Program-made: the position numbers and the translations under genes
Shown here: piece after piece, positions 1 through 35,137 of the stretch
Numbering within the stretch: position 1 is the first letter of the stretch
Layout of the letters: each line of letters opens with the position of its first letter
Origin: Escherichia phage NJ01
DNA: 64,000 bases
Sequence record: NC_018835.1
Strand: one strand, 5' to 3'
Notes under the pieces: generated by a model
The model's input: only the letters and a program-made list of their open reading frames with translations
The model's database searches: none
Told to the model about the DNA's origin: nothing

Positions 1-359
1 CTTTCCAAGCCAAAAGTGTTGAGTGCGTTAATATTCTGAAACGTGAGATTCCAAATTGGGATGAAAACTTATATCAAAACTTAATGCAATATGCAATTGA
101 CTTAGGTGCTACTGAAGAAGAAGTATTGAAGGAAAACCGTCCGTCTATTTTCCTAGCTCTCCATAAAGCATACCAATTTGATAAAGGTAAGCAGCAGGTG
201 ATGGCTAAGATTAAACGTCCCGGTGCTCCACGCAAGGTTGTGAAGTCTGATGCTGCAAAGTCTCGTACTTCCAATAAGCCAGACAACGCTAAGGTTGCCA
301 AGGCATTCGCAGAGGGTCGCGTTAGTCACGAAGACGCATTCAAATTCCTCGTAGATTAA
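1..359 (+). CDS. hypothetical protein, 5'-partial (frame open to window start); possible scaffold/head-assembly protein by position
   Basis: Frame of track ORF 84..359 has no stop codon back to nt 3; lies directly upstream of capsid gene; basic C-terminus. Confidence 0.4.
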   Translation, partial: FQAKSVECVNILKREIPNWDENLYQNLMQYAIDLGATEEEVLKENRPSIFLALHKAYQFDKGKQQVMAKIKRPGAPRKVVKSDAAKSRTSNKPDNAKVAKAFAEGRVSHEDAFKFLVD

Positions 360-400
360 TCGACAAATTAATTATTTAATAGTATAGGAGCTAACATAAC

Positions 401-1462
401 ATGGCTAATCCAACTTTATTTGTATCGTATGACCAGAATGGTAAAAAACTTTCTTTTGCTAACTGGATTTCTGTTCTGTCCCCTCAGGATACTCCGTTCG
501 TATCTATGACCGGTAAAGAGTCTATCAACCAGACTATCTTTAGCTGGCAGACCGATGCACTGGCAAGCGTTGATGGTAATAACGCACACGTCGAAGGTTC
601 TCGTGCTGAAGACGGCGAAATGAAACCGACTGTTATCAAGTCTAACGTTACTCAGATTCTGCGTAAGGTTGTTCGTGTTTCTGACACTGCTAACACCACC
701 GCTAACTACGGTCGTGGTCGTGAACTGATGTATCAGCTGGAGAAGAAAGGTAAAGAGATCAAGCGTGACCTCGAGAAAATCCTTCTGTCCGGTCAGGCTC
801 GTACCGACGTTCTGGCTGACCAGTATCTGACTAACTCCGCAGCTGATCCGACTCAGATTGGTAAGAACGACACCCATGCAGCTCGTAAGACTGGTGCATT
901 CCAGTTCCTGTGTGCTCACGGCGGTCTGACTGGTGGCGTTGTTGACAAAACCAAGAATGGTCCTGCTGACCCAGATACCGGTGCTGTAACTGTTAAAGTT
1001 GCACAGAACGCTTCTAACCCGGCTACTAACATCGGTTTTGATGAAGCAGATATCTTTGATATGACTCTGCAACTTTACACCGCTGGTTCTGAAGCAGATA
1101 TCATCATGATTAACCCGGCTCATGCTAAGATCTTCGCTGGTCTGCAAGAAAACACTCAGGGTTCACGTAAGCGTATCTTTGAGAACACCAAGCAGTTCAT
1201 CTACGAAGTTAACAGCATCACTGACCCGCTGGGCCAGAGCTACAAAATCATCGTTAACCGTTGGATGCCTACCGATGCAGTTTACTTCTTCCGTAGCGCT
1301 GACTGGACCCAGATGGTTCTGCGTGCTCCGAAACGTACCGAACTGGCAAAAGATGGTTCTTACGAAAAATGGATGATTGAGATGGAAGTTGGTCTGCGTC
1401 ACCGCAACCCGTATGCTTCCGGTGTTCTGTTCACTGCTGCGGGAAAGGCAGTGGCGGCGTAA
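401..1462 (+). CDS. major capsid protein (short form)
   Basis: 353 aa; SD TAGGAG upstream of ATG 401; first complete gene of late + strand operon; 3' end contains slippery heptamer leading into Ig-like frame. Confidence 0.6.
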   Translation: MANPTLFVSYDQNGKKLSFANWISVLSPQDTPFVSMTGKESINQTIFSWQTDALASVDGNNAHVEGSRAEDGEMKPTVIKSNVTQILRKVVRVSDTANTTANYGRGRELMYQLEKKGKEIKRDLEKILLSGQARTDVLADQYLTNSAADPTQIGKNDTHAARKTGAFQFLCAHGGLTGGVVDKTKNGPADPDTGAVTVKVAQNASNPATNIGFDEADIFDMTLQLYTAGSEADIIMINPAHAKIFAGLQENTQGSRKRIFENTKQFIYEVNSITDPLGQSYKIIVNRWMPTDAVYFFRSADWTQMVLRAPKRTELAKDGSYEKWMIEMEVGLRHRNPYASGVLFTAAGKAVAA

Positions 1463-1989
1463 CAGTAGATACCATAACTGTTAGTCCTTCGTCGGTTGCA
1501 AGCCTTCCGACGGGGGCTACTCAGCAGTTTACAGCTACAGCACAAATGAGTGATAGCTCCACATCAACAACTGGATTTGTTTGGTCCGTTGAGGGTGGTG
1601 GGGCTATTTCTGTTTCTGGACTGTACACTGCACCGAGTGCGTCGCAAGAAACCCCGATCACAGTGAAAGCTACTAAAGGTGGTAAATCCGGTACATCTAC
1701 AATCTCAGCTATTGCTGACCCTGAACCTACAATTGTAAGTCGTGGTCCTATTGCTGGTAAAGTCGGTGGTTCTACTACTGCCTTCTCTACAATGTTTACT
1801 GTAACCAATTCTGCTGGTAGTGATTATGATTTTGTTGTAACCCCTACTGAAGCAGGTACTGTCAGTGCAGCTGGTCTTTTGACTCTTGCTGATGCTGCTA
1901 CTGGTACAGTCTCTGTTGCAGCTACACACAAGACTAAACCTCTTGTAACAGCCACTTGTGAATTCACAGGTGTTACCCCCAAAGCCTAA
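401..1989 (+). CDS. predicted capsid long form: capsid fused to C-terminal BIG2 Ig-like domains via -1 frameshift at 1441-1447
   Basis: -1 frame encodes Ig-like sequence (VTVDTITVSPSSVASLPTGATQQFTATAQ...) that begins upstream of the first ATG at 1546. Confidence 0.5.
1441..1447 (+). promoter_or_regulatory. putative -1 programmed ribosomal frameshift site (slippery heptamer G_GGA_AAG)
   Basis: GGGAAAG in X_XXY_YYZ register relative to capsid frame, 4 codons before capsid stop; -1 frame open 1381..1989. Confidence 0.5.
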
Positions 1990-1995
1990 AACTAA

Positions 1996-2024
1996 AGCTG
2001 CCTTCGGGTGGCTTTTCTTGTTTT
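1996..2024 (+). terminator. intrinsic terminator-like hairpin (UUCG loop) plus T-run
   Basis: agctgcc-ttcg-ggtggct stem-loop followed by ttttcttgtttt. Confidence 0.55.
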
Positions 2025-2046
2025 AAGACCTATACAAGCTAGTGTG

Positions 2047-2056
2047 TAATGTATAT
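2047..2056 (+). promoter_or_regulatory. TAATGTATAT motif, candidate phage middle/late promoter element
   Basis: Same motif also at 18879..18889; both ~33-35 nt upstream of an ATG with strong SD. Confidence 0.4.
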
Positions 2057-2088
2057 TCTTTGTCTACATATAACAAGGAGGACAACCT

Positions 2089-2841
2089 ATGGCGATGCCA
2101 GAAGTGCAAAACCCGATTAACACGTATGGCTGGCTTAAGAAAGCTGTTGCCTTGTGGGCCGATCGAGACGATGATGAATTTGTTAATCAAATTCCAAACT
2201 TTATTAACTTTGCAGAGAAAGAGATTTATCGTAACTTACGTATCCCTCCTCTGGAAAAAGAAGTGTATTTAGATATTAAAGATGGAGTAGCTTACATTCC
2301 TCCTGATTACTTAGAAGCTCAATGGATGATGAGAGCCAAAGATGGTACAATCTTCCAAGTAACATCTCCTGAAGAGATTAGCTATCGTAGACAGCATGGA
2401 ACAATTAACCCATCTCATTGGAATAACCAACCTGTTAACTTTGCTCGTTTCGGTAGTCGTTTCATTTTCTACCCTAGTATTGAAGCAGATACTCCTGTTT
2501 ATCCTGATGATGGAAGTCCTTTGATTCCAGCAGAAAACTCAGTAATTCTCAGTTATTATGCAGACCCACCGGAATTCCATGAAGATGCAGATACCAGTGC
2601 TATTCTTACTATTGCACCAGAACTTCTTCTGTATTTCACTCTACGTCACGCTTGCTTATTTGTTCAAGATGATAATGGAGTTCAGAAATGGTCTGCATTA
2701 GGAAAAGCTATCCTTGATGAAATGGTAGAACAGAATAAGAAACAAGAGTACTCAGGTTCACCTATCGCAATTCCGAATAACATGACTCGACTTCAGAGCA
2801 GCTTGCCTGACATTTATGGTATTCGTACTTCTCGTGTATAA
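2089..2841 (+). CDS. virion structural protein, function unknown
   Basis: 250 aa; SD AAGGAGG; between capsid and tail fiber genes. Confidence 0.5.
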   Translation: MAMPEVQNPINTYGWLKKAVALWADRDDDEFVNQIPNFINFAEKEIYRNLRIPPLEKEVYLDIKDGVAYIPPDYLEAQWMMRAKDGTIFQVTSPEEISYRRQHGTINPSHWNNQPVNFARFGSRFIFYPSIEADTPVYPDDGSPLIPAENSVILSYYADPPEFHEDADTSAILTIAPELLLYFTLRHACLFVQDDNGVQKWSALGKAILDEMVEQNKKQEYSGSPIAIPNNMTRLQSSLPDIYGIRTSRV

Positions 2842-2850
2842 GGAGATAAT

Positions 2851-5409
2851 ATGATCGTTTATAATAACCAAGCACCTGATGCAGTGAATAACGTTGGGCA
2901 GTTTGGTGCTACTGAAGGCTCTATCGGAGCTTACAAGCAAGCAGCAGAATACGCAGCTGACTCCAAATATTGGGCACTGCTAGCGGAATCTAAGTTTGGT
3001 ACAATTGATGACTTGATCGCTGAAGTAGAACGTCTGTATCAACAAGGTGTTCTGATGAAGCAGGATATTGAAGATCTTAAACAAGATTTTAAAGATCAAG
3101 ATGCTCGTCTTATGACCTTGATTGCCCAGACTAACGCAGCTGTTTCTGATGCGAATAACGCTGTTGCTTTAATCAATCAGAAACTTATTGAAGTCCAGAA
3201 TCAGCTTGACGTTCTGTTAGGAATGTCCGTTGATGTAACCACACTTCCTCCGGGAACTCCGGCTACTGGTTCTTTTAATCCTAACACTGGTGTAATCTCT
3301 CTAGGTATCCCAGAAGGCGAACCCGGAAAGGATGGTTCTGTTAAGGATTTAGACACAGCTCCTACTGGTGTTCCAGAGCTAGGTGATTTAGGTTTCTATG
3401 TTGACAAAGATGACAATACCGTCCACAAAACTACTCTAGATAACATTGCTAACTTAATCCCATCTGTTCGTTCTGTCTCTATTAACGGCGGTCCAGCTCT
3501 TGATGGAGAGGTTGCTCTAATACTTAACAAAGAGACGGTAGGTTTAGGAAATGTTCTGAACGTCGCTCAGTACAGTCGTCAAGAGATTAATGACAAATTT
3601 GACAAGACTACCAAGACATACCAATCAAAAGCAGAAGCTGATGCTGATGCTCAGTATCGTCAAGTAGGTGAGAAAGTTTTAGTTTGGGAAGCTACTAAGT
3701 ATGAATTCTATACTGTTGCTGCTAACAAAACACTGACTCCTGTTAAAACTGAAGGTAGAATTCTTACCGTTAACTCTCGCTCTCCAGACTCAAGCGGTAA
3801 TATCGATATCACGATTCCAACAGGTAACCCGTCTTTGTATCTTGGTGAAATGGTAATGTTCCCTTACGACCCATCTAAGAATATCTCCTACCCAGGAGTT
3901 CTTCCTGCTGATGGTCGTCTGGTATCAAAAGAATCTGCTCTCGACTTAGGCCCATCTCTTGTCAGTGGTCAGCTTCCTGTAGTCTCTGAAACTGAATGGC
4001 AAGCAGGGTCTAAACAATATTTCTCATGGGGTAAGCTAGCAGATGGGATTACTGATGCGGATTCTACTAATTTCATCAATATTCGACTTCCTGATTGGAC
4101 TGGAGGGGAGGCAATAAGAGCACCAGATTCTGATAAAGATTCTCAATACAATGGGTCTGTACAGGCTCAGAAACCTTATGTTGTCACGGTAAATAACCAA
4201 GCTCCTGATGAGATTACAGGGAACGTAACCCTCTCCAGATCTATCTTGGGAGCAGCTTCTTCTGGTGCAAACTCTGATATAACATCCCTGACAGGACTCA
4301 CTACAGCTCTCTCTATCGCTCAAGGTGGTACAGGAGGGAAAACTCCATCTGAAGCTAGGGCAAACCTAAATCTTGAAAGATTTCAACAAGACAACTCGCA
4401 GACTTTGATATATTCTCCTGATTATGCCCGTCGTGTTTATGTTGACAACACTGGTGGTTCTTGGGGGTGCCAGAACGTAACAGATGGCGGTTTTATTGCT
4501 CTTGGTATTCCTCAAGGGGGTACAGGGGCTAAGGATGCTGCTGGTGCACGAAGTAATCTCGGTTTGGGTTCAGTGTCCACACTAAACAATATACCCGTAG
4601 CTAATGGAGGTACTGGAGCAACTACTGCTGCTGGTGCTCGTTCCAACTTAGGTCTTGGGAGTGTTTCTACTCTGGATAATGTACCTATTGCTAATGGTGG
4701 GACAGGGGCAGCTGATGCTGCTGGTGCAAGGTTTAATATTGGAGCACTAAGCAGCACCCCAGCAAATACAGGTGTTGGTGGTACTGGTAATCGCGTCCAA
4801 CATGCATCCGGGAATGGCCTGTTTACTTTAGACATGTTTAACTGCTACTGGTATATGCAGCCAGAGGATACTAACTTCTGGGTTGCCCACAGTGTATCAT
4901 ATGCAGGATCTGGTGGCGAAGCCTCTGGATACGGTCGTATAACTTACGCAATAAAGATTGCAGATGGAACAACAAAATATGTCCATTGTCTTACAAACAA
5001 AAATACTATTACCGATGTAAGCGGTTTTATCAAAGCGGCATCTCCGGTAGTTAATATTTACGCCAACGGTCGATATGAGACGAACGATGAATCTGAGGGG
5101 GTCAATGTCATTCGGCAAGGTGTCGGTGAGTATTTGATTACCGGTTGCCTCGGCTTAAACGCAGATGCAAAATGGGGAGGTATCGACGGCGGCTTTGAAA
5201 TCCCTATTGACCGCAACAAACAGCCTAGGGTTTGGCTTGATTATGAGGTTAAAGAAGATGGTTCTATTTTAGTCAAGACCTATCACAGAACCCATTCAAC
5301 ATCCCCAGTTTTTGCTAGAAACGAGTTGGAAGGTTTTTCTGACGGTGACCCAATCGATATCCCTGCTGATGCTTTCATATCAGTTCGTGTTGAAATGCCT
5401 TCTAAATGA
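2851..5409 (+). CDS. tail fiber protein with tandem fiber repeats
   Basis: 852 aa; three ~30-aa repeats (GGTGA..AAGAR.NLGLGSVSTL.N.P.ANGGTGA); SD AAGGAG. Confidence 0.7.
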   Translation: MIVYNNQAPDAVNNVGQFGATEGSIGAYKQAAEYAADSKYWALLAESKFGTIDDLIAEVERLYQQGVLMKQDIEDLKQDFKDQDARLMTLIAQTNAAVSDANNAVALINQKLIEVQNQLDVLLGMSVDVTTLPPGTPATGSFNPNTGVISLGIPEGEPGKDGSVKDLDTAPTGVPELGDLGFYVDKDDNTVHKTTLDNIANLIPSVRSVSINGGPALDGEVALILNKETVGLGNVLNVAQYSRQEINDKFDKTTKTYQSKAEADADAQYRQVGEKVLVWEATKYEFYTVAANKTLTPVKTEGRILTVNSRSPDSSGNIDITIPTGNPSLYLGEMVMFPYDPSKNISYPGVLPADGRLVSKESALDLGPSLVSGQLPVVSETEWQAGSKQYFSWGKLADGITDADSTNFINIRLPDWTGGEAIRAPDSDKDSQYNGSVQAQKPYVVTVNNQAPDEITGNVTLSRSILGAASSGANSDITSLTGLTTALSIAQGGTGGKTPSEARANLNLERFQQDNSQTLIYSPDYARRVYVDNTGGSWGCQNVTDGGFIALGIPQGGTGAKDAAGARSNLGLGSVSTLNNIPVANGGTGATTAAGARSNLGLGSVSTLDNVPIANGGTGAADAAGARFNIGALSSTPANTGVGGTGNRVQHASGNGLFTLDMFNCYWYMQPEDTNFWVAHSVSYAGSGGEASGYGRITYAIKIADGTTKYVHCLTNKNTITDVSGFIKAASPVVNIYANGRYETNDESEGVNVIRQGVGEYLITGCLGLNADAKWGGIDGGFEIPIDRNKQPRVWLDYEVKEDGSILVKTYHRTHSTSPVFARNELEGFSDGDPIDIPADAFISVRVEMPSK

Positions 5410-5418
5410 AACAAGAAT

Positions 5419-5434
5419 GCTCCCTTCGGGGAGC
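5419..5434 (+). other. intercistronic GC-rich hairpin with UUCG tetraloop
   Basis: gctccc-ttcg-gggagc perfect stem; short T-run only. Confidence 0.4.
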
Positions 5435-5449
5435 TTTAAGGAGAAATAA

Positions 5450-7627
5450 ATGTCTAGAGAATTAATGCCCAAATCTGGTATAATGATGCCTCATGTAGTA
5501 GTAACCAGAGATGCGGCTGTTGTTGGTGTTTCTACGGTAGATGGTCAGGCAGGAGCTGTGAATCTGACTGATAAATATTTACAGAAAACTGACGCAGCTG
5601 CTACATACCAGACTAAAGTGGAAGGAGCATCTAAAGATTTTGTACTGGATTCGATTCAACCTATTATGTCTGGTGCTTTATTCAGAGCAGACCCTTGGGT
5701 TGTTAACGACACCCCTCTCCGTTCTACCGGAGCTAACGGTGTAGAGTCAGTGGATATGATGAAGGTTACTCCTGATAACTCAATTAAGATTGGCAGTTAT
5801 GCTTCTTCTGTTCAAGGAGTAGAGATTCATTCTGCTGGTCGTCTTCAAGTAGTAGACCAGAACGACTCTGGTGTAGAAACTAAATATCCAGTATATTCTA
5901 AACGCTATCGTCCTGAGATTGAGGATCTGCCTTTCGCTGCAATTGGTTCTTATGTCAAAGATTCAAAGGGCCGTACTATTGGTGTAAACCGTACCGGTAT
6001 CAACTCTGATATCAAACAACTCACCCAAAAGGTCACTTTTACCCAACCTGTTACTGTAGCAGATGCTGTAGGCGATTATGATGCAGTGACACTGAGACAG
6101 CTTCGTAATAGTGGTGGTGGTTCTGGTGGTCCTACTATGAGTGGTATCTCCAACTTTGGTATTGGTGATTTCCATCTTCGTGATAGTCGTGCTTTCATCC
6201 CTGCATTCGAAGTTGTATCAGATGGTCAGCTACTGAATCGTGCTGATTACCCTGATCTTTGGGCTTATGCCCAGTTGTTAACCCCTATCACAGATGCTGC
6301 TTGGTTGGCTGATGCACAGCAACGAGGTAAATATTCAACTGGTGATGGTTCTACTACCTTCCGTGTTCCTGATAGGAATGGTGTTCAGAGTGGCTCTCTG
6401 AAAGAACTCTTTGCTCGTGGTGATGGTGGTAATAGTAGTAATAATGGAATGGCTTATGATGCGGCACTTCCTAACATCGTAGGTTACACTGCCCACACTC
6501 TTTTAACTGCTGCGAGTAATCAAGGACAGGTTGCTACCGATGGAGCTTTTACCTCTACAACCTCAACCTCAGGTGTTTGGCCTTTGTCTGGCGGTGGCGG
6601 TCTTTATACCAACATTCAGCTTAACGCTAACAACAGTGATGCTACTTATGGTCGCTACGGAATCACAGCGAATGCTATCCCTCGTAACTTCATTGGTGTT
6701 TGGACTATCCGTGCTCATGGTGGTTTTGTAGCAGCTAACACTTCTTGGTCTGTTATTAACAGTGATGCTTCAGAACAACCTTCAGGTACTCCTATTACTG
6801 GTGGATTGGTTTCTTCTAAGTATGTAGTTGGAGGTGTGGATAAGTATCGGTCTTCTATCCAGTTGATAGGGTCTAATGAAGTTGATTTATCAACTAGAAT
6901 TACGACTATAAATGATAGATATTCCATCGGGGCTGCAACTTGGGATTTTAAGTTAGATGGTAAACTTGTTTTTAATAAAAGTTTAAATCCTACCGGAACA
7001 GGATACTCCCCTGCTAACACCTACGTAACTCTTGCTAATACTTGGCTGACTTCTCCCTATAGTGGATACGTTGGTTTTGTTGGTGGCGGTGTTGGAGTTT
7101 CTAACGGAGGTTGGAGAAACTTCATCTCTTTAGGGTCTTTGATTTTCCCTGATTCAGCCCACCCTACTGCTATTATCTCTCAAGTGTATGATTACGATAT
7201 GGCGACCGGGAACCAGCCTAATGGGGACATTGTTCGGAATACATCGTTCAATGCTGAGAGCTATGATATCACTTTCGGGAACAACAGTGGGACTACTAAT
7301 TACATCTTCAGTAAATCTCCAGTCTCTGACGAGCGTCTAAAACATAGCATCAAAGAGGAGGGGACAGCCACAGCTCTTTCTAACCTAAACAAGATGGAGT
7401 ATAAAACCTTTATCTATAATTATGATGAGAAAGCAACTGTAAGGCGTGGATTTATTGCCCAGCAACTTGAAGCTATTGACCCTCAATATGTTAGGAAGTA
7501 TAAAACCTTCAAAGGTACTGATACTCTAGCTTTAGATGAGAATGTGTTGCTTTTAGATGCAATTGCTGCTATCCAAGAGCTTTCTAAAAAGGTTGAGGCT
7601 TTAGAAGCAAAACTAGCAGAGAAGTAA
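5450..7627 (+). CDS. tail fiber/tailspike with C-terminal intramolecular chaperone (peptidase S74-like) domain
   Basis: 725 aa; C-terminus SDERLKHSIKEE...IAQQLEAIDPQYV resembles self-cleaving chaperone domains of phage fibers. Confidence 0.7.
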   Translation: MSRELMPKSGIMMPHVVVTRDAAVVGVSTVDGQAGAVNLTDKYLQKTDAAATYQTKVEGASKDFVLDSIQPIMSGALFRADPWVVNDTPLRSTGANGVESVDMMKVTPDNSIKIGSYASSVQGVEIHSAGRLQVVDQNDSGVETKYPVYSKRYRPEIEDLPFAAIGSYVKDSKGRTIGVNRTGINSDIKQLTQKVTFTQPVTVADAVGDYDAVTLRQLRNSGGGSGGPTMSGISNFGIGDFHLRDSRAFIPAFEVVSDGQLLNRADYPDLWAYAQLLTPITDAAWLADAQQRGKYSTGDGSTTFRVPDRNGVQSGSLKELFARGDGGNSSNNGMAYDAALPNIVGYTAHTLLTAASNQGQVATDGAFTSTTSTSGVWPLSGGGGLYTNIQLNANNSDATYGRYGITANAIPRNFIGVWTIRAHGGFVAANTSWSVINSDASEQPSGTPITGGLVSSKYVVGGVDKYRSSIQLIGSNEVDLSTRITTINDRYSIGAATWDFKLDGKLVFNKSLNPTGTGYSPANTYVTLANTWLTSPYSGYVGFVGGGVGVSNGGWRNFISLGSLIFPDSAHPTAIISQVYDYDMATGNQPNGDIVRNTSFNAESYDITFGNNSGTTNYIFSKSPVSDERLKHSIKEEGTATALSNLNKMEYKTFIYNYDEKATVRRGFIAQQLEAIDPQYVRKYKTFKGTDTLALDENVLLLDAIAAIQELSKKVEALEAKLAEK

Positions 7628-7631
7628 GATA

Positions 7632-7647
7632 AGCCCCTTCGGGGGCT
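7632..7647 (+). other. intercistronic GC-rich hairpin with UUCG tetraloop
   Basis: agcccc-ttcg-ggggct perfect stem after fiber gene. Confidence 0.4.
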
Positions 7648-7719
7648 TTAGTAGTAAGTACCCTTAGTAAGTAATGAAACTAATATATCCCAAGAGGTTA
7701 ATATATAGGAGACACTCAA

Positions 7720-7938
7720 ATGAAAATGATGAAACAAGCTGCATACGGTTTAATCTGTTTAGGTGCAGGTGTTGTGGTGTCAACCGCAGTTCCTGTAAGC
7801 GCAGTTCATCCATTAGTAACTGTCCCTGCTCCAGTAGAGAAGCTTAGCTCTCAATGTAAGCAGAGAACAATTCAAAATAACCTAGTTGTTATTTGTCCTG
7901 ATGCTGAATCTAACGCTCTGAGAAAGATACTACCTTAA
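7720..7938 (+). CDS. small secreted protein (predicted signal peptide)
   Basis: 72 aa; N-terminal MKMMKQAAYGLICLGAGVVVSTAVPVSA hydrophobic signal; SD GGAGA. Confidence 0.45.
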   Translation: MKMMKQAAYGLICLGAGVVVSTAVPVSAVHPLVTVPAPVEKLSSQCKQRTIQNNLVVICPDAESNALRKILP

Positions 7939-7966
7939 TTTAAAGGGACCACAAAGGAGGTTAGAA

Positions 7967-8458
7967 ATGGATAACGCCGCATTGCCACCTGTACAACTAA
8001 ACTTAAGCCCAGCTGGAATGGAATTCATCATGAAGCATGAGGGTATGAGAACCAAGGCTTATAAAGATTCCGCAGGTATCTGGACTATATGTGTAGGGGC
8101 TACGCGCGATATGAATGGTTATCCGGTTAGACAAGGATTAACGTATTCTATAGAGGATTGTCTAGCTCTGCTAGATAGAGACACACAAGACTCTGTTCGT
8201 GCTACTCAGAAGAACATAAAGGTTCCTTTACTAGTTCATGAGTTTGATGCACTCACTTCTTTCAACTTCAATGTTGGCAGTGGTGCTTTGAGAACATCTA
8301 AGTTAAGGAAGGTTATCAATGGAGAAGTGAAAGGGGATGTTTATTCCGAATTTCTTCGTTGGGATAAAATAACGGTCAGGGGAGAAAAGCAGAGAAGTCA
8401 GGGTCTTCATAACAGAAGGGTTGCAGAAGCTGATCTTTACACTGAAGGTAAATATTAA
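7967..8458 (+). CDS. endolysin, T4-lysozyme-like (GH24) muramidase
   Basis: 163 aa; E-9aa-D-6aa-T catalytic spacing in MKHEGMRTKAYKDSAGIWTICVGAT; SD AAGGAGG. Confidence 0.85.
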   Translation: MDNAALPPVQLNLSPAGMEFIMKHEGMRTKAYKDSAGIWTICVGATRDMNGYPVRQGLTYSIEDCLALLDRDTQDSVRATQKNIKVPLLVHEFDALTSFNFNVGSGALRTSKLRKVINGEVKGDVYSEFLRWDKITVRGEKQRSQGLHNRRVAEADLYTEGKY

Positions 8459-8470
8459 TGGAGGTGCCTT

Positions 8471-9274
8471 TTGGCTATCGAAACTAATGCGGTAGTTATT
8501 ACCGACTTAAACCCACTCTATCCTAGAGACAGGGATTACATCTACGAAGGGGCGGCTCAAATCCGCCTCATTAAACAAACACTACAGAATACATTCCCCA
8601 ATGTTACAGAACCAGTTGATATAGATTCTGATACCTTTAAGATTATGTCAGAGAAGCTCAAGTTTACTGGCGATGCAATGGATGTTGGTGGTCTGATGAT
8701 TAAGAACGTCACTCCGGGGACTGGTGACAGGGATGTTGTTACTAAAGGTCAGATGGAAGCGTTCATGAAGAACTGGATGGAGAATAAGCTCTATCGAATT
8801 GGCTCTTACTATATCACTGAAGAAGATATTAACCCCGGTGACTCGATCTCCCTAGGGTTTGGTTCTTGGGCTAAAGTTACTGGTGTTATCATGGGTACTG
8901 GTGTTGTAAACCCTGATGGCTCTGTTCCTAATGCTCAGAGGGTTGAGTTCCAAGCAGGTGGTACTGGTGGTCGTGTCTTCAATACTATTCGTACAGAGAA
9001 CGTACCTTTGATGACAGTTAATGGCTCCAGCTTCTCCTTATCCAGCAACACCCATAGTCACAACATGGTGTTTGGTCGTGGAGATGCTAGTGGTCATAAC
9101 AGCTCGCCTAACTGGTACAGTCCGGGTGGTGGTTACAGTCAGAGAACAGAGAATGATACACACTCTCATACAATCTCTGGTAGTGTGAGTCTTGGTCGTG
9201 ATGACATTTCTCGTCAACCTATCAACACTTTGCCACCATTCAGATCGGCTCACATTTGGAGACGTATTAGCTAA
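8471..9274 (+). CDS. virion-associated protein, function unknown (TTG start)
   Basis: 267 aa; GGAGG 5 nt upstream of TTG; within structural operon. Confidence 0.45.
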   Translation: MAIETNAVVITDLNPLYPRDRDYIYEGAAQIRLIKQTLQNTFPNVTEPVDIDSDTFKIMSEKLKFTGDAMDVGGLMIKNVTPGTGDRDVVTKGQMEAFMKNWMENKLYRIGSYYITEEDINPGDSISLGFGSWAKVTGVIMGTGVVNPDGSVPNAQRVEFQAGGTGGRVFNTIRTENVPLMTVNGSSFSLSSNTHSHNMVFGRGDASGHNSSPNWYSPGGGYSQRTENDTHSHTISGSVSLGRDDISRQPINTLPPFRSAHIWRRIS

Positions 9275-9283
9275 GGAGGAATT

Positions 9284-12200
9284 ATGGCGCTGTATCCAAT
9301 AAAGTCACTAGGTGCTGTAGGCGTTATCGCTGATCAGGCTCCGACAGACTTAGCTCCTAATGCTTTCACTAATGCTATAAATGCTCGATTTGTTGAGCAG
9401 AGAGTATTTAAGACGGGGGGCAATGCCCCTCTTTCTTATGTAGATGAAGATAAGGATTTAACCCCTCTGTCTTTCGTTTCTATGCCTTTCGATTATTATA
9501 GCGCAGGTAATAGCTTTCTTGTTGTAGGTACGGATAAGAAGTTATATAAACTGACAGATGAAAGCTTGACTGACATTAGCCGTAAGGTTGCTACAGTCAC
9601 TAAAAAGGCTTCTGCCTCAATTAAGATTTATCCAGTTGTTTCTCAGATTGTTCCAAAAGAATCAACTATTTCAATGAACTTCAATCAGACTAAGAATCTA
9701 GAAGTTTCTCTTCTTCCTGCTGATGCTAACAATACCGACCTTGTTTGGGAGGTTAGTAATTCATCTTATGGAAGTATTACAGTAGACCCTAGTGATTCTA
9801 AACTTGCTACTCTAACATCTTTTGAGAGAGAGGGTAATCTTGTAGTAACTATCTCTACTGCTGATGATTCTGTAGTGGCTCAGATTGCTGTTAACATTAT
9901 AGATGGTGATTCGGGAATCTTCTTGAGTCAAGACACTGTTACTATCCGTAAAGGAGGGACTACCACTCTTACAGCTGTTACTGGTAAAACTCCTGTAACT
10001 TGGTCCAGCAGCAATGCTTCTATTGTATCTGTAACCCCTAATGCTAATTCCCTAACTGCTGTTATTACTGCTAATGGTGAGGGCAATGTAACAATCACTG
10101 CTGATAACGGAACGAAAACTGCTTCTTGTGAGGTTGTTTCCATACCTCAGATTGACAGTATCACCTTAAGTCAGTCAGATGTGATAGTTAGTAGAGGTTC
10201 TCAATACATTTTAACTGCTACCCTTTCTCCTGCTAACGCCCCTAATCAAAACATTACTTGGACTTCTTCTAATCCAAATATTGCAACAGTATCAGGGACC
10301 AGTACACAAGGGACGGTCAACGCCCTACTCGCTGGCTTTACTGAGATTACGGCTACCACTGAAGAAGGTAACAGAGTTGCTGTCTGTACTGTACGAGTAG
10401 ACTTAGCTGGAAGGGCGATGAGAACAAGTGCTATGGCATTTGCTGCACCTGCATCAGAACCAATTGAATCACAAGAGGAAGAAGTAGTAACTCCTCCTGA
10501 AAGTGAAGAGATGGTTTATTTTGCTGAGCCTACGTCTGGTATTGATACGTCAGGGATGTACGAAGGTAACAGCTTCTATGACTATTCTAACGTAAATGAT
10601 ATTGAAGGTTTTGCAAGAGCTTCTTTGTTCGCAACTCCTTTGTCATCCGTAACCTTAGATGTTGTCAGCGCTTCTCTCGATGTTGGTGAGGAAATAGTTA
10701 TCACAGCTACAGCTTCCCCAGAAGGTGATTATTCTTATCAGTGGTCTGTTGATAAGACTGGTTATGTTTCTACAACTTCAGTTACTGGTAAATCTATCAA
10801 ACTGGTTGCTCTTCGTAAAGGAGAGATTAATGTAACATGTACTGTCAGCCAAATGACTCAGAAGGATTACGACGCTTTTGATGACTACCCTTGGTATCAC
10901 GCTGTTATCTCTAACTGTGCAGTTGCTACAACTCACTATGAAACTCCTCAGGTAAAAGAATTCGAATCAGAATACTTTGTAGACCTTCCGGGATGGGGTG
11001 AGCAAACAGTTGTTGATAATGATGGAAACCCTTCAGTCAAGAAGTTTAACTGGAAATGTGAAAGAGTAAGATCTTTTAACAACCGTCTTTTTGCTCTGAA
11101 TATGAGAGAGGCTAATGCTTCTGGTGTTACCACTAACTACCCACTTCGTCTTCGTTGGTCTAACTTTGCCAATGAGAACAAAGCTCCTACACTGTGGGAT
11201 GACTTTGCCTACGATCGGGTTGTGTCTTCGGACTTGGCTTCTAACATCGTAGGACAGACTCAGGCTTTAGAAAATGGATATGCTGGTTACATTGACCTAG
11301 CGGACTCTAACGGCAGCTTAATTGATATCTTACCTCTTAAAGATTACTTGTTCGTTTATACAGAGTTTGAAACGTATATTGGTTCTCCGACTAATAACAC
11401 ATACCAACCTCTGATGTTCAAGAAACTCTTTAATGACTCTGGTATCCTTGCTCCTGAGTGTGTGGTTGAAGTAGAAGGTAGCCACTTCGTAGTTACTCAG
11501 AACGATGTAATCCTACACAATGGTGCAACCAAGAAGTCAATTGCATCTAACCGTGTTAAGAACATGCTGATTAATGAGGTGTGTCTGGTTAACCCTCTAG
11601 CAACTCGAGTACACTTGCATCAGGATAAGAAAGAAGTTTGGGTTCTCTATGTAGGTCCGGGAGAGCCGAAAGAAAGCTTCGCTTGCACTAAAGCTGCTGT
11701 ATGGAACTACGAGTTTGATACTTGGTCTTTCCGTACTATCCCTTATGCTCAGTGTATCGGTCTGGTTGATCCTCCTGTTCTAGAGAGAGGTCCAATCTGG
11801 TCTGACTTCCAAGAGATCACTTGGGATGACCCATCTATCAAAGAACTCGTTTGGAGAAAGGATGCAACAAACTTTAGACAGAGGGTTACGATAGTAGGTT
11901 CGTTCTTGAGGGGATTCTACCAAGTGGATGTAGGTGCTCTTGATTATTTCTATGACAGGTTAAATGATGTTGTTATAGAGAAGCCTCTGGAGATGAGGTT
12001 GGAGAGAACTGGTCTAGATTTTGATAATGTGACAAATGAGTGGAATCAGAAGCATATTAACAGATTCCGTCCTCAGACAACCGGCTCAGGCACTTATACC
12101 TTTGAAGCTGGAGGTAGTCAATTCTCAAATGAATATGGACACCCACACACATCTAAGACTTATACAATCGGTGTTGACAGGCATGTCTCGGTGAGACTGA

Positions 12201-12301
12201 ACCATCCATACCTTTTCTATAATGTTATAGATAATGATGTTAACAGTAATGCTGCTATCAATGGGTTAACGATAGAGTTTGCTGTTGGCGGACGGAGATA
12301 A
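9284..12301 (+). CDS. large virion structural protein with tandem Ig-like (BIG2) domains
   Basis: 1005 aa; at least three BIG2-like segments (residues ~110-370); SD AAGGAGG. Confidence 0.65.
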   Translation: MALYPIKSLGAVGVIADQAPTDLAPNAFTNAINARFVEQRVFKTGGNAPLSYVDEDKDLTPLSFVSMPFDYYSAGNSFLVVGTDKKLYKLTDESLTDISRKVATVTKKASASIKIYPVVSQIVPKESTISMNFNQTKNLEVSLLPADANNTDLVWEVSNSSYGSITVDPSDSKLATLTSFEREGNLVVTISTADDSVVAQIAVNIIDGDSGIFLSQDTVTIRKGGTTTLTAVTGKTPVTWSSSNASIVSVTPNANSLTAVITANGEGNVTITADNGTKTASCEVVSIPQIDSITLSQSDVIVSRGSQYILTATLSPANAPNQNITWTSSNPNIATVSGTSTQGTVNALLAGFTEITATTEEGNRVAVCTVRVDLAGRAMRTSAMAFAAPASEPIESQEEEVVTPPESEEMVYFAEPTSGIDTSGMYEGNSFYDYSNVNDIEGFARASLFATPLSSVTLDVVSASLDVGEEIVITATASPEGDYSYQWSVDKTGYVSTTSVTGKSIKLVALRKGEINVTCTVSQMTQKDYDAFDDYPWYHAVISNCAVATTHYETPQVKEFESEYFVDLPGWGEQTVVDNDGNPSVKKFNWKCERVRSFNNRLFALNMREANASGVTTNYPLRLRWSNFANENKAPTLWDDFAYDRVVSSDLASNIVGQTQALENGYAGYIDLADSNGSLIDILPLKDYLFVYTEFETYIGSPTNNTYQPLMFKKLFNDSGILAPECVVEVEGSHFVVTQNDVILHNGATKKSIASNRVKNMLINEVCLVNPLATRVHLHQDKKEVWVLYVGPGEPKESFACTKAAVWNYEFDTWSFRTIPYAQCIGLVDPPVLERGPIWSDFQEITWDDPSIKELVWRKDATNFRQRVTIVGSFLRGFYQVDVGALDYFYDRLNDVVIEKPLEMRLERTGLDFDNVTNEWNQKHINRFRPQTTGSGTYTFEAGGSQFSNEYGHPHTSKTYTIGVDRHVSVRLNHPYLFYNVIDNDVNSNAAINGLTIEFAVGGRR

Positions 12302-12307
12302 CAACAA

Positions 12308-12334
12308 GGGGCTTCGTGCCCCTTTTATTGTTTT
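12308..12334 (+). terminator. intrinsic terminator
   Basis: ggggc-ttcgt-gcccc hairpin followed by ttttattgtttt. Confidence 0.6.
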
Positions 12335-12344
12335 GGAGGAACTT

Positions 12345-13313
12345 ATGGGTGCAGGTGGTTTTCGTAAGAACACTGGTCGTAATAACACCACACTCCCGTA
12401 CAACGTTGGGTTTCTCAATAATGTACAGGACACAGAAACATATAACGTAGCCGTATATGACGAGCTACAGAAAGTCAGTACAGCTACTAACCAAATGTTC
12501 CAAGCTATTGATGAGATTCACGATGAGATTGATGTTCGTATCAAAGCTCTTCATGCGATGAATCTACAATTTGATGAGCTTGAGAACAGAATTACCACAG
12601 AGATTGAAACAGCTATCGCAGATATTATAACACAGATGGGGAATCTCTCCACTGAAGATATTTGGGATAATTCTGTTCAACCTCCTGTAAAATTAGAAAG
12701 CACTGTATCTGGCTTTAAGACAAGTATTGAAGGTAACACAACTAAGATTCAAACGGTAGAAGGGATTGTTAACGACCAAGGTCAAGAGATTGCTTTAGTT
12801 CAGACAGAGATTCAAAATATCAATGGAAGCCTCTCTCAGTATATGAAGCTTTCTGAGTATGAAGCTACTTGGGGTGTTAACTCTACGGTCAACGGAAGAT
12901 ACGCTGGGGTCAAGTTAACTAACAACGGAACAAACAGTCAATTCCAAGTAACAGCTAACAAGTTTATTGTTGGTGATGGCAGCTCTGGTAATACCCCTTT
13001 TGTATTTGAAGGCGGAAGAGCTAGGATGGAATTCGCTGACATAAAGAACGTCAACATCACAACAGCTCAGATTGCCAACGCTAGAATTCAATGGGCACAG
13101 ATTGATAACGTATCTATCTCCAATGCTCAAATTCAGAACTTATCAGCGGATAAAATCACTGCTGGTTCTATGTGGGGTTCTAACTGGAGACTTACTGTTG
13201 GGGGTGACTTTGTTATGGGTGGCACAGGTGGTTCTCAGTTGTGGATGAATGGTAATAGAATAGATTTTTATGATGGGAGTGGAACTCTTCGCATAAGAAT
13301 AGGGAGTTGGTAA
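12345..13313 (+). CDS. virion structural protein (coiled-coil N-terminal region), function unknown
   Basis: ATG 12345 with GGAGG SD preferred over overlapping TTG 12279; 322 aa. Confidence 0.55.
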   Translation: MGAGGFRKNTGRNNTTLPYNVGFLNNVQDTETYNVAVYDELQKVSTATNQMFQAIDEIHDEIDVRIKALHAMNLQFDELENRITTEIETAIADIITQMGNLSTEDIWDNSVQPPVKLESTVSGFKTSIEGNTTKIQTVEGIVNDQGQEIALVQTEIQNINGSLSQYMKLSEYEATWGVNSTVNGRYAGVKLTNNGTNSQFQVTANKFIVGDGSSGNTPFVFEGGRARMEFADIKNVNITTAQIANARIQWAQIDNVSISNAQIQNLSADKITAGSMWGSNWRLTVGGDFVMGGTGGSQLWMNGNRIDFYDGSGTLRIRIGSW

Positions 13314-13314
13314 T

Positions 13315-14349
13315 ATGGCGTATGGAATATGGACAAGACCGGTCGGTCCGGGGCCAGCAGCACCTGCTGATATTTACATTGACAGTGGTAGCACATTCCC
13401 TCAGTTAAGAAACAGGGTCAGTGGTAATTTTTCTTTTAATGGTAACACATGTGATCTACCTATAAGCGGTTGGGATGGAAGTGGTCAGATAGTTGTAGTC
13501 CCAACAGGGTCTGTTGTTTGGGAGAGATACATACCTCCTAATGTAACATCTGATGTGTATTGGCTAACGGATATATCTGTTATTAATAACTCAACCTTCA
13601 GAGTTACTATGGATTATAATGTAAACGGTTGGGTATTTGATATGGCTTTTAATGTATATCAAATATGGCCTAGAGCTAACAGGAACTATGGAATCACATT
13701 CTCCAACTCTGCTGACTATTTCTCAATCTCTGATTCTGGAGTTGTTGGTCAATGTATTTGGGCTTGGGAGGGTGACATAAATGGTGCTCTTCAAATACCA
13801 GATATTGGTGGTTTTGATATGAGCCGAGCAACTGTCTACGCGAATTGGAGTAACGGCGGAGCAGGTCTGCTATACAACCCATCCAATAGGGTTGTTTATG
13901 TGTACCAGAACAGGTCTCATGATAATGGTAACACAAACCAAACAGGGTACATTGGTGGTGTTAGGATTGCCGTCTTCTGTGATGGTTCGGGAGTACCAAC
14001 CCACAATGGAGGTTTAAATATCTTTTCTCCAAATGGGTCTCAGTGTGTTTTTTCTACATATAGAACCCCTTTTAGTGTTGAGGGGTTTATGCCTATGAGT
14101 GGTGGTAACACATCTTTGGCCTATCCAATGATACCTCTATCTTATGGTGCTGGAGCAATAAGAGGTAAGGCTAGTGGTTGGTATTTTCAACACACAAGAT
14201 CTCACATGATGAATGGCTCTTCTTTTGGTACAGGTTTCGGAAGGATGATTTACTCTTGGAGTAGTCAATATGATTTAGGAGGGGGTGGTGCCCTCGGGTT
14301 AAGTATTCCAATATTAGATGCTAGAAAGATATTCAGGAGTATACAATAA
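13315..14349 (+). CDS. virion structural protein, function unknown
   Basis: 344 aa; start overlaps upstream stop (TAATATG). Confidence 0.5.
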   Translation: MAYGIWTRPVGPGPAAPADIYIDSGSTFPQLRNRVSGNFSFNGNTCDLPISGWDGSGQIVVVPTGSVVWERYIPPNVTSDVYWLTDISVINNSTFRVTMDYNVNGWVFDMAFNVYQIWPRANRNYGITFSNSADYFSISDSGVVGQCIWAWEGDINGALQIPDIGGFDMSRATVYANWSNGGAGLLYNPSNRVVYVYQNRSHDNGNTNQTGYIGGVRIAVFCDGSGVPTHNGGLNIFSPNGSQCVFSTYRTPFSVEGFMPMSGGNTSLAYPMIPLSYGAGAIRGKASGWYFQHTRSHMMNGSSFGTGFGRMIYSWSSQYDLGGGGALGLSIPILDARKIFRSIQ

Positions 14350-14358
14350 GGAGATATT

Positions 14359-15141
14359 ATGGCAATTAGAATGGGTATCGAAGAACTAGACCCAATGGTA
14401 CAGCAAGCTTCAAAGAAGTATGGGATTCCTGCTGCTTTGATTCATGCTGTAATCCAAAGAGAGTCTAGTGGACGTCCTAAAGTAGCCTCTGGAACTGGTC
14501 CTGTAGGTCTAATGCAGATCAGTAAAGGGTTGGCTAAAGACTATGGATACAAACTAGAAGATAGACTGGACCCAGCAAAGAATATTGACATGGGTGCTCG
14601 TTATATCAGAGATAACTTAAAAGCTTTTAATGGTGATATTAAGAAAGCAATGGTTGGTTACTCTGAAGGGACAGGGGGTGCTAGGCAGATGTTTGCTGGT
14701 AAGAAAGGGTTTACCCCTCAGGCTCTAGACTCAATGAACAATAAACATTTTCTTCCTTTTTACGGTGATGCAGCTTCTCAGATTGCTAACCCAATTGGGG
14801 CTTTACAAGCTGTTCAACCAGCCAATCAGTTTAATCCTGACCTGTTAGATAGAGAGAAGGCTGCACAAGCTCCCACTCAGGCAGAGATTGCTGCTTCTAA
14901 GACGGGTGCTTTAGGTGGTAATCCGGTAGAGTTTTACTCTGATGAAGTACAGGAGGGTGAAGACCAGAAGCCTCAACAGAACTTTGGTAATGCAGTATTA
15001 GGAGTAGCTGCTATGCTTGCTGGTAAACCTCCTACTTCTCAAACAGTTCAGAGGGCAAGTGCACCTCATGCAGCAGGTTCTCAGTACAGTCCACAAACAC
15101 AAGCAGTGCTTAGACGTTTGGCTAGCATTGGTGTTAAGTAA
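14359..15141 (+). CDS. lytic transglycosylase (SLT domain), virion-associated peptidoglycan hydrolase
   Basis: 260 aa; SLT signature VIQRESSGRP...GLMQIS; SD AAGGAG. Confidence 0.8.
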   Translation: MAIRMGIEELDPMVQQASKKYGIPAALIHAVIQRESSGRPKVASGTGPVGLMQISKGLAKDYGYKLEDRLDPAKNIDMGARYIRDNLKAFNGDIKKAMVGYSEGTGGARQMFAGKKGFTPQALDSMNNKHFLPFYGDAASQIANPIGALQAVQPANQFNPDLLDREKAAQAPTQAEIAASKTGALGGNPVEFYSDEVQEGEDQKPQQNFGNAVLGVAAMLAGKPPTSQTVQRASAPHAAGSQYSPQTQAVLRRLASIGVK

Positions 15142-15160
15142 TAGTCATTAAGGAGGACTT

Positions 15161-16213: not shown

Positions 16214-16225
16214 AGGAGATTTGAT

Positions 16226-17194: not shown

Positions 17195-17207
17195 TTAGGA
17201 GATAAAT

Positions 17208-18857
17208 ATGCAACAGACAACTTATGCTCAGGTCAGAAGTCGCGACCCGAGAAATACTTTCTATGGTGTTAATCCGGGAGCGGCTTCGGCCTCTCCTTAT
17301 ATGGCTAGACCTATTCAGACATCAGATGTTTCTATGTACCAACGTCCTGCTGTACCTGCTGGACTTTCCCGTCTTGTAGGTCAAACTTCAGTAGATTATC
17401 AGAACATGCTGAACCCTGTTCAGAGTAATGGACTCCCTTCTGATATTCCTAATGACGTACAACCTCAAGCACAACAAGCTGTAACTCTTCCTGAGCCTAA
17501 CAATCAGGAAACTGTGCAAGATGCCGGACCTTCTCCTTCTTCTATTCCTCAGGAATCAGAACCTCTTCCGGTAACACCTCCCACTAAACCGCTAGAAGCT
17601 GGTCCTATGGAGTTTACTCCTTCTCAGGTGGAACAGGCACAAGGTGTGGTTAACACTCTTGCTCAAGGACAAGACACTGGTGATGGTATGGCTGCTGCTA
17701 CTCGTGCTAAAGATCAGGAACGTGTTAACAATGACATCATGCAGGTTGCTAAAGCTAAAGACCCTTCAGAAGCTTGGAATAAACTACAGAAAGAACCTTT
17801 CTATCAGAACTCTAGTTTCTATACAGGTTTGATGGGTGTAGGTCTCTCTATCATGTCAGGTAAGTCTCCTATCGAAGCGTTCCAGATTGGTCAAGGAATG
17901 GCTAATCAAGATGAGACTAAGAAGCAACTAGAAGCTAACCGTGATGCATTGGTTGAACAGGGTTTCTCTCAAGACTCAATTGCAGCTGCTATAGCTCAGG
18001 GTGATCCTTCTCTTCTGAAGATGAAAGCTAAAGACCCTCTTCAACAGGAAGCTCTGTATGCTGCTCGTGAAGAACGTCAGAATGCTGAGTGGGATAGACG
18101 TCAACAGATTCAAGAACAGACTATGCGTGAGCGTGCTGATGAGACTCGACGTGCCGCTGAAGAAAGAGCTAACATGAACTTTGAACGTCAGAAAGAGTTG
18201 ATCGGCTTCCGTGATAAGGTTAAGGCTGAACGTGCTGAACAAGCTGCTCAGAGTTTTAACTTTAACCCGAAAGAAGTTCGTCTTGCTCAGAACACCGCTG
18301 AAGGTACAGTTGCTAAGCAGTGGGCTGAGAAGGGTGGTCTGTTTAATCAGTCCAACAAAGACTTGGATTTGGCTGACAAAGCAGTTAAAGATAAAGATTA
18401 CCAGACAGCTCGTTCTGCTTACATGCAGGCTATTATGAACTCTGCAAGGGCTGAAATTGGTGCTACTCGCTCTCTTACCGAAGAAGACTTGGGACATTTT
18501 GCAGAAGACCCATCGGTCTTTATCCGTGTAGGTAACAAGTTTGCTCTGAAGTCAGGATGGCGTCCTACTGACTCTGCTCTTTCTTATGCTCGTAAGCAGG
18601 CCAATGTTGGTCACACCTCTGCGATGAAAGGTGTTGCTGATGCTAAGAGAGCTACTATCGAAGCATATATTGGTTCTGGTATGGACAAGAAAAGAGCTAC
18701 TGCATTGGTTAACCGTGCAATTCCTTCTGGTGGTTTCTATGACCCTCTCGGTGTTTTCTCTGAGCAAGCAGAAGAGTCAGTTGGTGGTGCAGCAACCAAT
18801 CCTAAACTGAATGGTGCTCTATCGGCTGTTGAAGACACTAGCTGGTTCACTGAGTAA
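17208..18857 (+). CDS. internal virion protein, function unknown
   Basis: 549 aa; SD AGGAG; charged coiled-coil C-terminal half. Confidence 0.5.
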   Translation: MQQTTYAQVRSRDPRNTFYGVNPGAASASPYMARPIQTSDVSMYQRPAVPAGLSRLVGQTSVDYQNMLNPVQSNGLPSDIPNDVQPQAQQAVTLPEPNNQETVQDAGPSPSSIPQESEPLPVTPPTKPLEAGPMEFTPSQVEQAQGVVNTLAQGQDTGDGMAAATRAKDQERVNNDIMQVAKAKDPSEAWNKLQKEPFYQNSSFYTGLMGVGLSIMSGKSPIEAFQIGQGMANQDETKKQLEANRDALVEQGFSQDSIAAAIAQGDPSLLKMKAKDPLQQEALYAAREERQNAEWDRRQQIQEQTMRERADETRRAAEERANMNFERQKELIGFRDKVKAERAEQAAQSFNFNPKEVRLAQNTAEGTVAKQWAEKGGLFNQSNKDLDLADKAVKDKDYQTARSAYMQAIMNSARAEIGATRSLTEEDLGHFAEDPSVFIRVGNKFALKSGWRPTDSALSYARKQANVGHTSAMKGVADAKRATIEAYIGSGMDKKRATALVNRAIPSGGFYDPLGVFSEQAEESVGGAATNPKLNGALSAVEDTSWFTE

Positions 18858-18878
18858 TACCTAAGTCCTGCCTTCTAT

Positions 18879-18889
18879 AATGTATATAG
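18879..18889 (+). promoter_or_regulatory. TAATGTATATA motif, candidate phage middle/late promoter element
   Basis: 35 nt upstream of ATG 18924; same motif as 2047..2056. Confidence 0.4.
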
Positions 18890-18923
18890 GGGGTAGGACA
18901 TTTTATTTATAAAAGGAGACGTT

Positions 18924-25964: not shown

Positions 25965-27248
<1,284 letters not shown>

Positions 27249-28344: not shown

Positions 28345-28355
28345 AATATACATTA
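28345..28355 (-). promoter_or_regulatory. TAATGTATAT-like motif on minus strand upstream of SSB gene
   Basis: Reverse complement of + strand aatatacatta; ~55 nt upstream of SSB ATG. Confidence 0.35.
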
Positions 28356-28418
28356 CGCTTATACCGATAAGAGTGCTATATAATATAAGTATCTTTGGTA
28401 GTAGATATAACACATTAG

Positions 28419-28429
28419 TAATGTATATA
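28419..28429 (+). promoter_or_regulatory. orphan + strand TAATGTATATA motif in AT-rich intergenic region
   Basis: Identical to motifs at 2047 and 18879 but no + strand ORF downstream. Confidence 0.3.
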
Positions 28430-28703
28430 TTGTATAGCTGATAAAGTTATTGCAGGCTTGTATATTGGGCAATTCACAGAATCCCTTGCAAGTACCGAAG
28501 GGCAGGAGCCACCTGCGAGATAAAAATAGAGAATTAAGGAATCCTTGATTTAGGTTGTAGGGACTCCTAGGGACTTTGATTCTCTATTTAAAAGAATATT
28601 AATTACTTACTACCTAAATAATTAACTAACTTACTTAAACCAAATTCAAGAATAATAGATAAAAAGATTATTCCTAAGAAAGCTAAAAAGTAAAGTATAT
28701 AAG

Positions 28704-35081: not shown

Positions 35082-35137
35082 TTAGAACTCCTTAATATAT
35101 CAGTATACACTAAGGAGTATACATTATAAGTTACTGT

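Follow-up and report, generated by a model that had tools for sequence, protein, structure and literature searches.

The window analysed here, the whole 64,000-nucleotide stretch of DNA, comes from a phiEco32-like coliphage (Kuravirus). In a megablast of positions 1500-9500, Escherichia phage 172-1 was 96.5% identical and phiEco32 91%; almost all of the 108 related records were from coliphages. Gene order is as in phiEco32, with structural genes on the + strand to ~23.3 kb, followed by middle and early genes on the minus strand. Because position 1 of the window corresponds to ~7060 in phiEco32, promoter P6 lies outside it. Non-coding DNA makes up ~9% of the window, and the cumulative GC skew turns at ~24 kb. 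An Rfam scan of the whole window returned one tRNA and nothing else; this gene (59234-59305, minus strand; RF00005, 57 bits) is the tRNA-Arg annotated in phiEco32 and ECBP2. Two genes encode homologues of phiEco32 transcription proteins:

26344..26988, minus strand: phage sigma factor gene (gp36 homologue), 213 of 214 residues identical to phiEco32 gp36
45995..46243, minus strand: gp79 homologue gene, 82 of 82 residues identical to phiEco32 gp79

The sole change in the sigma factor relative to phiEco32 gp36 is K28R. The protein matches PDB 9m7y chain F with E=2.6e-145, and all the contact residues of gp36 are present (E79, H80, Y83, R84, W90, S91, S94, N95, Y186 and R187).

The feature under study is a 10-nucleotide word, TAATGTATAT, at 2047-2056, upstream of a gene of the SU10 adaptor family (2089-2841; Pfam PF24175). 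The initial annotation, made by eye, had proposed that this word and its copies were phage-specific promoters, and had added that further copies might have been missed. A search of the whole window located the exact 10-mer at 2047-2056, 13650-13659, 18878-18887 and 28419-28428 on the + strand, and at 28346-28355 on the minus strand. The copy at 13650 had indeed been overlooked, as had three others, all on the minus strand: TAATGTATAC at 35117-35126 and AAATGTATAT at 39818-39827, which each differ from the 10-mer by one base and occupy true promoter positions, and the 8-mer core AATGTATA at 63413-63420. The second + strand site is present, with its coordinates one off: the 11-mer TAATGTATATA occupies 18878-18888, not 18879-18889. 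The minus-strand copy given as 28345-28355 is exact over the 10-mer, although the final base of the 11-mer is T, not A. A distance of 33-35 nt to a downstream ATG fits the first site (33 nt) and not the second (36-37 nt), whereas the strong Shine-Dalgarno sequences described at both + strand sites are there, as AAGGAG(G) in both genes.

The promoter reading had been offered subject to an exhaustive motif search and a comparison with chance, in which the exact 10-mer proved to be ~25-fold enriched (five copies against 0.20 expected), with at least five copies in 0 of 100 dinucleotide shuffles. The 8-mer core was found eight times against 2.79 expected (at least eight in 0 of 100 shuffles), and six of these eight copies lie within the ~9% of the window that is non-coding. 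Five of the six intergenic copies face a gene with a Shine-Dalgarno sequence, 27-53 nt past the predicted start. Were the copies simply AT-rich words arising by chance in a genome of 42% GC, or a side effect of coding sequence, one would not expect this excess of exact copies or this concentration in non-coding DNA, nor would orthologous intergenic copies be kept in phages that are only ~80% identical. Two observations do fit such an origin: the 10-mer is not enriched when one mismatch is allowed (8 matches against 5.4 expected), and the copy at 13650 encodes a conserved FNVY, for which phiEco32 uses synonymous codons and no longer has the DNA word. For the intergenic copies this explanation is refuted by the enrichment and by conservation in ECBP2, and as an account of the motif we regard it as extremely improbable.

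Two of the eight core copies lie inside genes:

13650..13659, + strand: intragenic exact copy, in gene 13315-14349 (DUF6453 membrane protein), encoding F-N-V-Y
63413..63420, minus strand: intragenic AATGTATA, in the 98-aa ORF 63222-63518 (phi32_116, gp116 homologue); the preceding base is G, not T

At the counterpart of the first, phiEco32 encodes the same residues with TTCAACGTATAC and ECBP2 has FQAY, so that the word is not conserved as DNA; judged from these sequences, the copy is probably a by-product of codon choice and not a promoter. A scan for AATGTAT found no copy inside the ECBP2 homologue of gp116 (ECBP2_0113, 70629-70934). Since neither word is conserved as DNA in ECBP2, the copy at 63413 is also probably a by-product of coding sequence and not a promoter. 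With two of its eight copies intragenic and probably inactive, the 8-mer core alone is insufficient to define a promoter.

A scan of phiEco32 combined with comparison of the flanks paired five of the intergenic sites one-to-one with phiEco32 promoters: 2048 with P13 (phiEco32 9102), 18879 with P26 (phiEco32 26015), and 28354, 35125 and 39826, all on the minus strand, with P40, P58 and P68. All five sites are kept in ECBP2 (Suseptimavirus, ~80% genome identity). These promoters and their associated blocks are:

2024..2032, + strand: P13 upstream block TAAGACCTA, at -38..-30, with the same spacing at P26
2047..2055, + strand: P13-type late promoter, -10-like element TAATGTATA; predicted transcription start ~2062-2064; serves 2089-2841 and the tail/lysis genes downstream
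18855..18863, + strand: P26 upstream block TAATACCTA, at -38..-30; TAAGACCTA in phiEco32 and ECBP2
18878..18886, + strand: P26-type late promoter, TAATGTATA; predicted start ~18893; serves a 1473-aa gene, 18924-23345
28347..28355, minus strand: P40-type middle promoter, TAATGTATA; predicted start ~28340; serves 27541-28287 (minus strand) and downstream genes including the sigma gene
35118..35126, minus strand: P58-type middle promoter, TAATGTATA; predicted start ~35111; serves 34764-35081 (minus strand)
39819..39827, minus strand: P68-type middle promoter, AAATGTATA; predicted start ~39812; serves 39450-39779 (minus strand)
39839..39849, minus strand: P68 -35 block GGTAGTAGATA; the same block occurs at the orphan copy, 28397..28407 (+ strand)

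The starts at 2062, 18893, 28340(-), 35111(-) and 39812(-) were predicted by setting AATGTA at -14..-9, and give leaders of 27-53 nt. The description of the motif as lying upstream of late operons holds for 2047 and 18878 only; the sites at 28346(-), 35118(-) and 39819(-) are middle promoters. Fitted to the consensus tAATGTAtA, the 9-mer is TAATGTATA at 2047, 18878, 28355(-), 35126(-) and 28419, and AAATGTATA at 39827(-), in agreement with Table S3 of PMC8948821. A first multiple alignment of the flanks was uninformative because the sites share little sequence beyond the motif.

From about -40 to the ATG, P13 is near-identical to its phiEco32 orthologue (9101-9109), with ~3 substitutions, and is also kept in ECBP2. 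Just upstream of it is an intrinsic terminator at 1994-2015, with a stem formed by AAAGCTGCC...GGTGGCTTT and a T-run (1994-2025, + strand). At phiEco32 P6, a terminator is likewise followed by a promoter. The late-promoter block (TAAGACCTA or TAATACCTA) lies exactly 24 nt upstream of AATGTA at both P13 and P26, and is found at the same spacing in P13 and P26 of phiEco32 and ECBP2; P6 has no such block. We regard the block as a putative functional element of both promoters. Upstream blocks were also considered as markers of temporal class, and rejected: TAAGACCTA is present in P13 and P26 but not in P6, and GGTAGTAGATA in P68 and the orphan copy but not in P40 or P58. The literature mostly calls gp36 promoters single-element.

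The P26 promoter is orthologous to phiEco32 P26 at 26014-26022. A 15-bp terminator-like hairpin (18865-18899, + strand) has the -10 element of P26 in its top; it is followed by ATTTTATTTA and lies at the end of the gene at 17208-18857. All pairs of this hairpin are kept in ECBP2 despite five base changes in its arms. As the predicted start at ~18893 falls within the 3' arm, the hairpin would form only in transcripts arriving from upstream.

P40 of the window is orthologous to phiEco32 P40 and is conserved in 13 relatives. An inverted repeat, CTTATACCGATAAG (28359-28372, + strand), lies between its -10 and -35 regions, is partly kept in relatives, and could be an operator. The gp40 homologue served by P40 (27541-28287, minus strand) had been called an SSB gene. 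Its product has the acidic C-terminal tail EDDNDSPF, a feature typical of SSB or T7 gp2.5-type proteins; the assignment lacks domain support, with no Pfam match and no annotated PHROG match.

P58 is orthologous to phiEco32 P58 and is kept in ECBP2. Downstream of its -10 element (35081-35117, minus strand) there is an 8-bp inverted repeat, ACTCCTTA...TAAGGAGT, whose pairing would mask the Shine-Dalgarno sequence of gene 34764-35081. Transcription from P58 is predicted to start at the last base of the 5' arm of the repeat, and therefore only read-through transcripts from upstream could form it. The repeat is invariant in phiEco32 and ECBP2 and hence shows no covariation. P68 is orthologous to phiEco32 P68, the promoter of the open complex solved by cryo-EM (PMC12276001).

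Measured against the phiEco32 gp36 promoters, those of the window have the same 9-mer consensus, genomic positions and downstream genes, and the sigma factor and activator are 99.5% and 100% identical. The upstream block of P26 carries one substitution (TAATACCTA), as does the -10 flank of P40 (TATT against TACT), and nothing essential differs. The extra + strand copy at 28419 is absent from the published phiEco32-type lists.

Reportedly, Pavlova et al. in 2012 described the gp36-dependent promoters of phiEco32 as P6, P13, P26, P40, P58 and P68. Three later reports (PMC4331800, PMC4281155, PMC8948821) give an experimentally determined consensus for gp36-dependent promoters, tAATGTAtA, and describe six of them: late ones before genes 6, 13 and 26, and middle ones before genes 40, 58 and 68. 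According to these reports, they are recognised by E. coli core RNA polymerase with gp36 through a single consensus, and transcription starts 6-8 nt downstream. In the 2025 cryo-EM structure of the gp79/gp36/P68 open complex, AATGTA spans -14..-9, with its centre at -11.5; gp36 makes base-specific contacts with -14A, -13A, -12T and -11G, and its C-terminal domain contacts -37G via R187 and -34A via Y186 (PMC12276001). The gp36 holoenzyme transcribes P26 in vitro with 4-fold stimulation by gp79, which activates both P26 and P68 and inhibits the sigma70 holoenzyme; gp36 transcription in vitro with stimulation by gp79 was shown for these two phiEco32 promoters only (PMC12276001). For 172-1, the nearest relative of the window, the six promoters have been tabulated by Lavysh et al. 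(2022; Table S3 of PMC8948821). We found no transcriptome of phiEco32-like phages in the literature.

Taken together, these data identify the motif with high confidence as the -10-like element through which gp36 recognises middle and late promoters in a phiEco32-like phage; the element is tAATGTAtA, and its AATGTA occupies -14..-9. Within the window, four things support this: the motif sequences, the degree to which they exceed chance, the orthology of the sites to mapped phiEco32 promoters, and the genes for the cognate sigma factor and activator. Transcription starts, gp36 dependence and base contacts are taken from the literature on phiEco32; since the promoters keep the 9-mer element and the sigma factor differs at one residue, we infer by analogy that the same start sites, dependence and contacts apply in this phage. 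The initial proposal of a phage-specific promoter of the phiEco32 middle/late type is borne out by the orthologous positions, the published consensus, and the encoded sigma factor and co-activator. It is correct, and the element is a known one, because its orthologues are mapped, gp36 and gp79 are encoded, and the promoters of 172-1 have already been tabulated.

By analogy with phiEco32, the early genes would be transcribed by the host sigma70 holoenzyme after infection, and the phage would next make the divergent sigma factor gp36 together with gp79. The latter, which in phiEco32 inhibits the sigma70 holoenzyme and activates the gp36 holoenzyme (PMC12276001), would displace sigma70 region 4 and stabilise the gp36 C-terminal domain. 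Joined to gp36, the E. coli core RNA polymerase would then melt the DNA at AATGTA and initiate 6-8 nt past the 9-mer, giving the late units from P13 at 2047 and P26 at 18878 and, on the opposite strand, the middle units from P40 at 28355, P58 at 35126 and P68 at 39827.

We also considered whether the motif might instead be a sigma70-type promoter (-10 or extended -10), or an operator to which some other DNA-binding protein binds. The AT-rich sequence of the motif is similar to TATAAT, and the SU10 genome paper suggested that sigma70 may also read middle promoters (PMC4281155). There is a weak sigma70-like match overlapping the orphan copy at 28419, and in one metagenomic variant the -10 element of that copy is TATAAT. 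In phiEco32, however, it is the gp36 holoenzyme that transcribes these promoters, the -11G is read specifically by gp36, and gp79 shuts off sigma70 when they fire (PMC12276001, PMC8948821). A scan of positions 1-20000 with the sigma70 consensus yielded 26 sites against 34.8 expected from shuffles. We consider a sigma70 promoter or a foreign operator very unlikely.

Recognition by gp36 can be placed among known systems. T4 middle promoters combine a MotA box with appropriation of sigma70 by AsiA, and sigma70 region 2 is retained for the -10 element. As in T4, sigma70 region 4 is put out of action by a small phage protein, and new promoter specificity comes from a second one; here, by contrast, a whole replacement sigma factor, gp36, reads the AATGTA -10-like element. 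The arrangement is also like that of sigma70 -10 and ECF promoters, in that the element lies at about -10, melting begins at -11, base reading falls to a sigma2-like domain, and contact with the -35 region is made by a sigma4-like one. It differs in that the element is AATGTA rather than TATAAT or an ECF -10 sequence, and in that most gp36 promoters have no common -35 consensus. The gp47 late promoters of Salmonella phage 7-11 occupy comparable genome positions, and there too a divergent phage sigma factor redirects the host core RNA polymerase. Their consensus is, however, bipartite and unrelated (GTAAtg-N16-aCTA), the two sigma factors are ~15% identical, and gp79 is absent (PMC8948821). In three 7-11-like loci (L007-L009), no AATGTA was found upstream of the gp40 homologue.

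The sixth intergenic copy, described in the initial annotation as an orphan, is an exact match and faces away from the neighbouring genes. The features around it are:

28397..28407, + strand: orphan -35-like block GGTAGTAGATA, at -37..-27; matches the P68 block exactly in both sequence and spacing
28419..28429, + strand: orphan copy TAATGTATATA, with the full consensus; divergent from P40 and directed away from all neighbouring genes; predicted start ~28434
28434..28594, + strand: conserved ORF-free region, with a 5' hairpin (28435-28449), a replaceable middle and a near-invariant 95-nt 3' domain

This copy is also present in phiEco32 (36705). It is absent from the six published promoters (Table S3 of PMC8948821), and the spacer between genes 40 and 41 (36573-36887) bears no annotation in either phiEco32 record. 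The block GGTAGTAGATA has two exact copies only in the window, at the orphan and at P68, and the orphan block includes the -37G and -34A that gp36 contacts in P68 (PMC12276001). Aligning 13 genomes of Kuravirus and Suseptimavirus showed GGTAGTA and TAATGTATATA to be invariant, with free variation in the spacer between them. Outside that alignment, the copy in metagenome contig L029 (8936-8945) reads AATATA: a G-to-A change at -11 loses the base contacted by gp36 and creates a perfect TATAAT.

Downstream of the orphan, the + strand contains no ORF that starts with ATG or has a Shine-Dalgarno sequence; there are only ORFs of 21-32 aa with TTG starts, and these are broken by 1-nt indels in relatives. 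A 6-bp hairpin begins at the predicted +1. Two of its pairs have changes on both sides, one being UA or GC and the other CG, UA or AU, and a third pair is GC or GU. Only this hairpin covaries; the remaining 27 pairs are essentially invariant and hence uninformative about structure. The middle segment exists in two unrelated versions of ~45 nt and ~70 nt, and which version occurs is independent of the hairpin type. The 95-nt 3' domain, which ends in a long hairpin at ~28524-28588, is 93.8% identical between the window and ECBP2, compared with 76-82% for the flanking protein genes.

Searches with three variants of this module in Rfam gave no match better than E ~2, and its core had no match in E. 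coli genomes. Pattern scans with the core recovered four contigs from a viral collection and six metagenome contigs; the four viral ones are kuravirus-type genomes of 76-78 kb, and the contigs contributed little extra diversity. The 7-11-like phages that carry gp40 have a short, different intergenic region with neither motif nor module. When the candidate RNA was compared by RNAduplex with all translation-initiation regions and with 60-nt windows, only its own antisense stood out, in a test that is poorly discriminating at this length.

The reading best supported by these features, which we propose tentatively and with somewhat less than even confidence, is that the orphan copy is a seventh gp36 promoter, divergent from P40, that yields a non-coding RNA of ~160 nt (28434 to ~28594). 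Possible roles for such an RNA are as a regulatory or decoy RNA, as an antisense to read-through from the upstream operon, or as a primer or activator transcript for replication. A near-even chance, in our judgement, attaches to a different account of this copy, in which 28356-28600 is an element acting at the DNA level, such as a transcription-activated origin, or a minus-strand terminator beside a decaying or decoy promoter. Origins of this kind are known at phi1.1A/B of T7 and at T4 middle promoters, and T4 uses orphan middle promoters in this way.

The evidence bears on both accounts. The 3' domain is invariant and hence shows no covariation, and it contains direct repeats (TAGGGAC twice) followed by AT-rich DNA, as a DNA-level element might. 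The + strand has no clear U-tract terminator; read on the minus strand, the long hairpin runs into TTTTTAT and might act, additionally or alternatively, as a terminator for the upstream operon. All the other + strand gp36 promoters have a terminator just upstream, and one contig carries the G-to-A change at -11. Conversely, both promoter elements of the orphan are conserved and the spacer between them drifts, and the predicted +1 is precisely where the hairpin with compensatory changes starts. Owing to G.U pairs, the predicted fold is more stable on the + strand (-45.8 kcal/mol, z -2.45) than on the minus strand (-35.3 kcal/mol, z -1.34). All 26 of the 26 G.U cells of the consensus structure become A.C mismatches on the other strand, a comparison biased toward the + strand because the structure was derived on that strand. 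The turn in GC skew at ~24 kb lies away from the module.

The motif finding is in the main a rediscovery of a well-studied phage transcription signal, and it indicates that sequence reading alone can pick out low-copy promoters of a phage sigma factor. The window can now be annotated correctly, with predicted starts for two late and three middle transcription units. The only unreported element that we identified is the candidate orphan promoter with its conserved downstream module, and further research interest is confined to this copy. Should it be active, a gp36 transcript that is non-coding and unusually conserved has gone unmapped in the phiEco32 model system.
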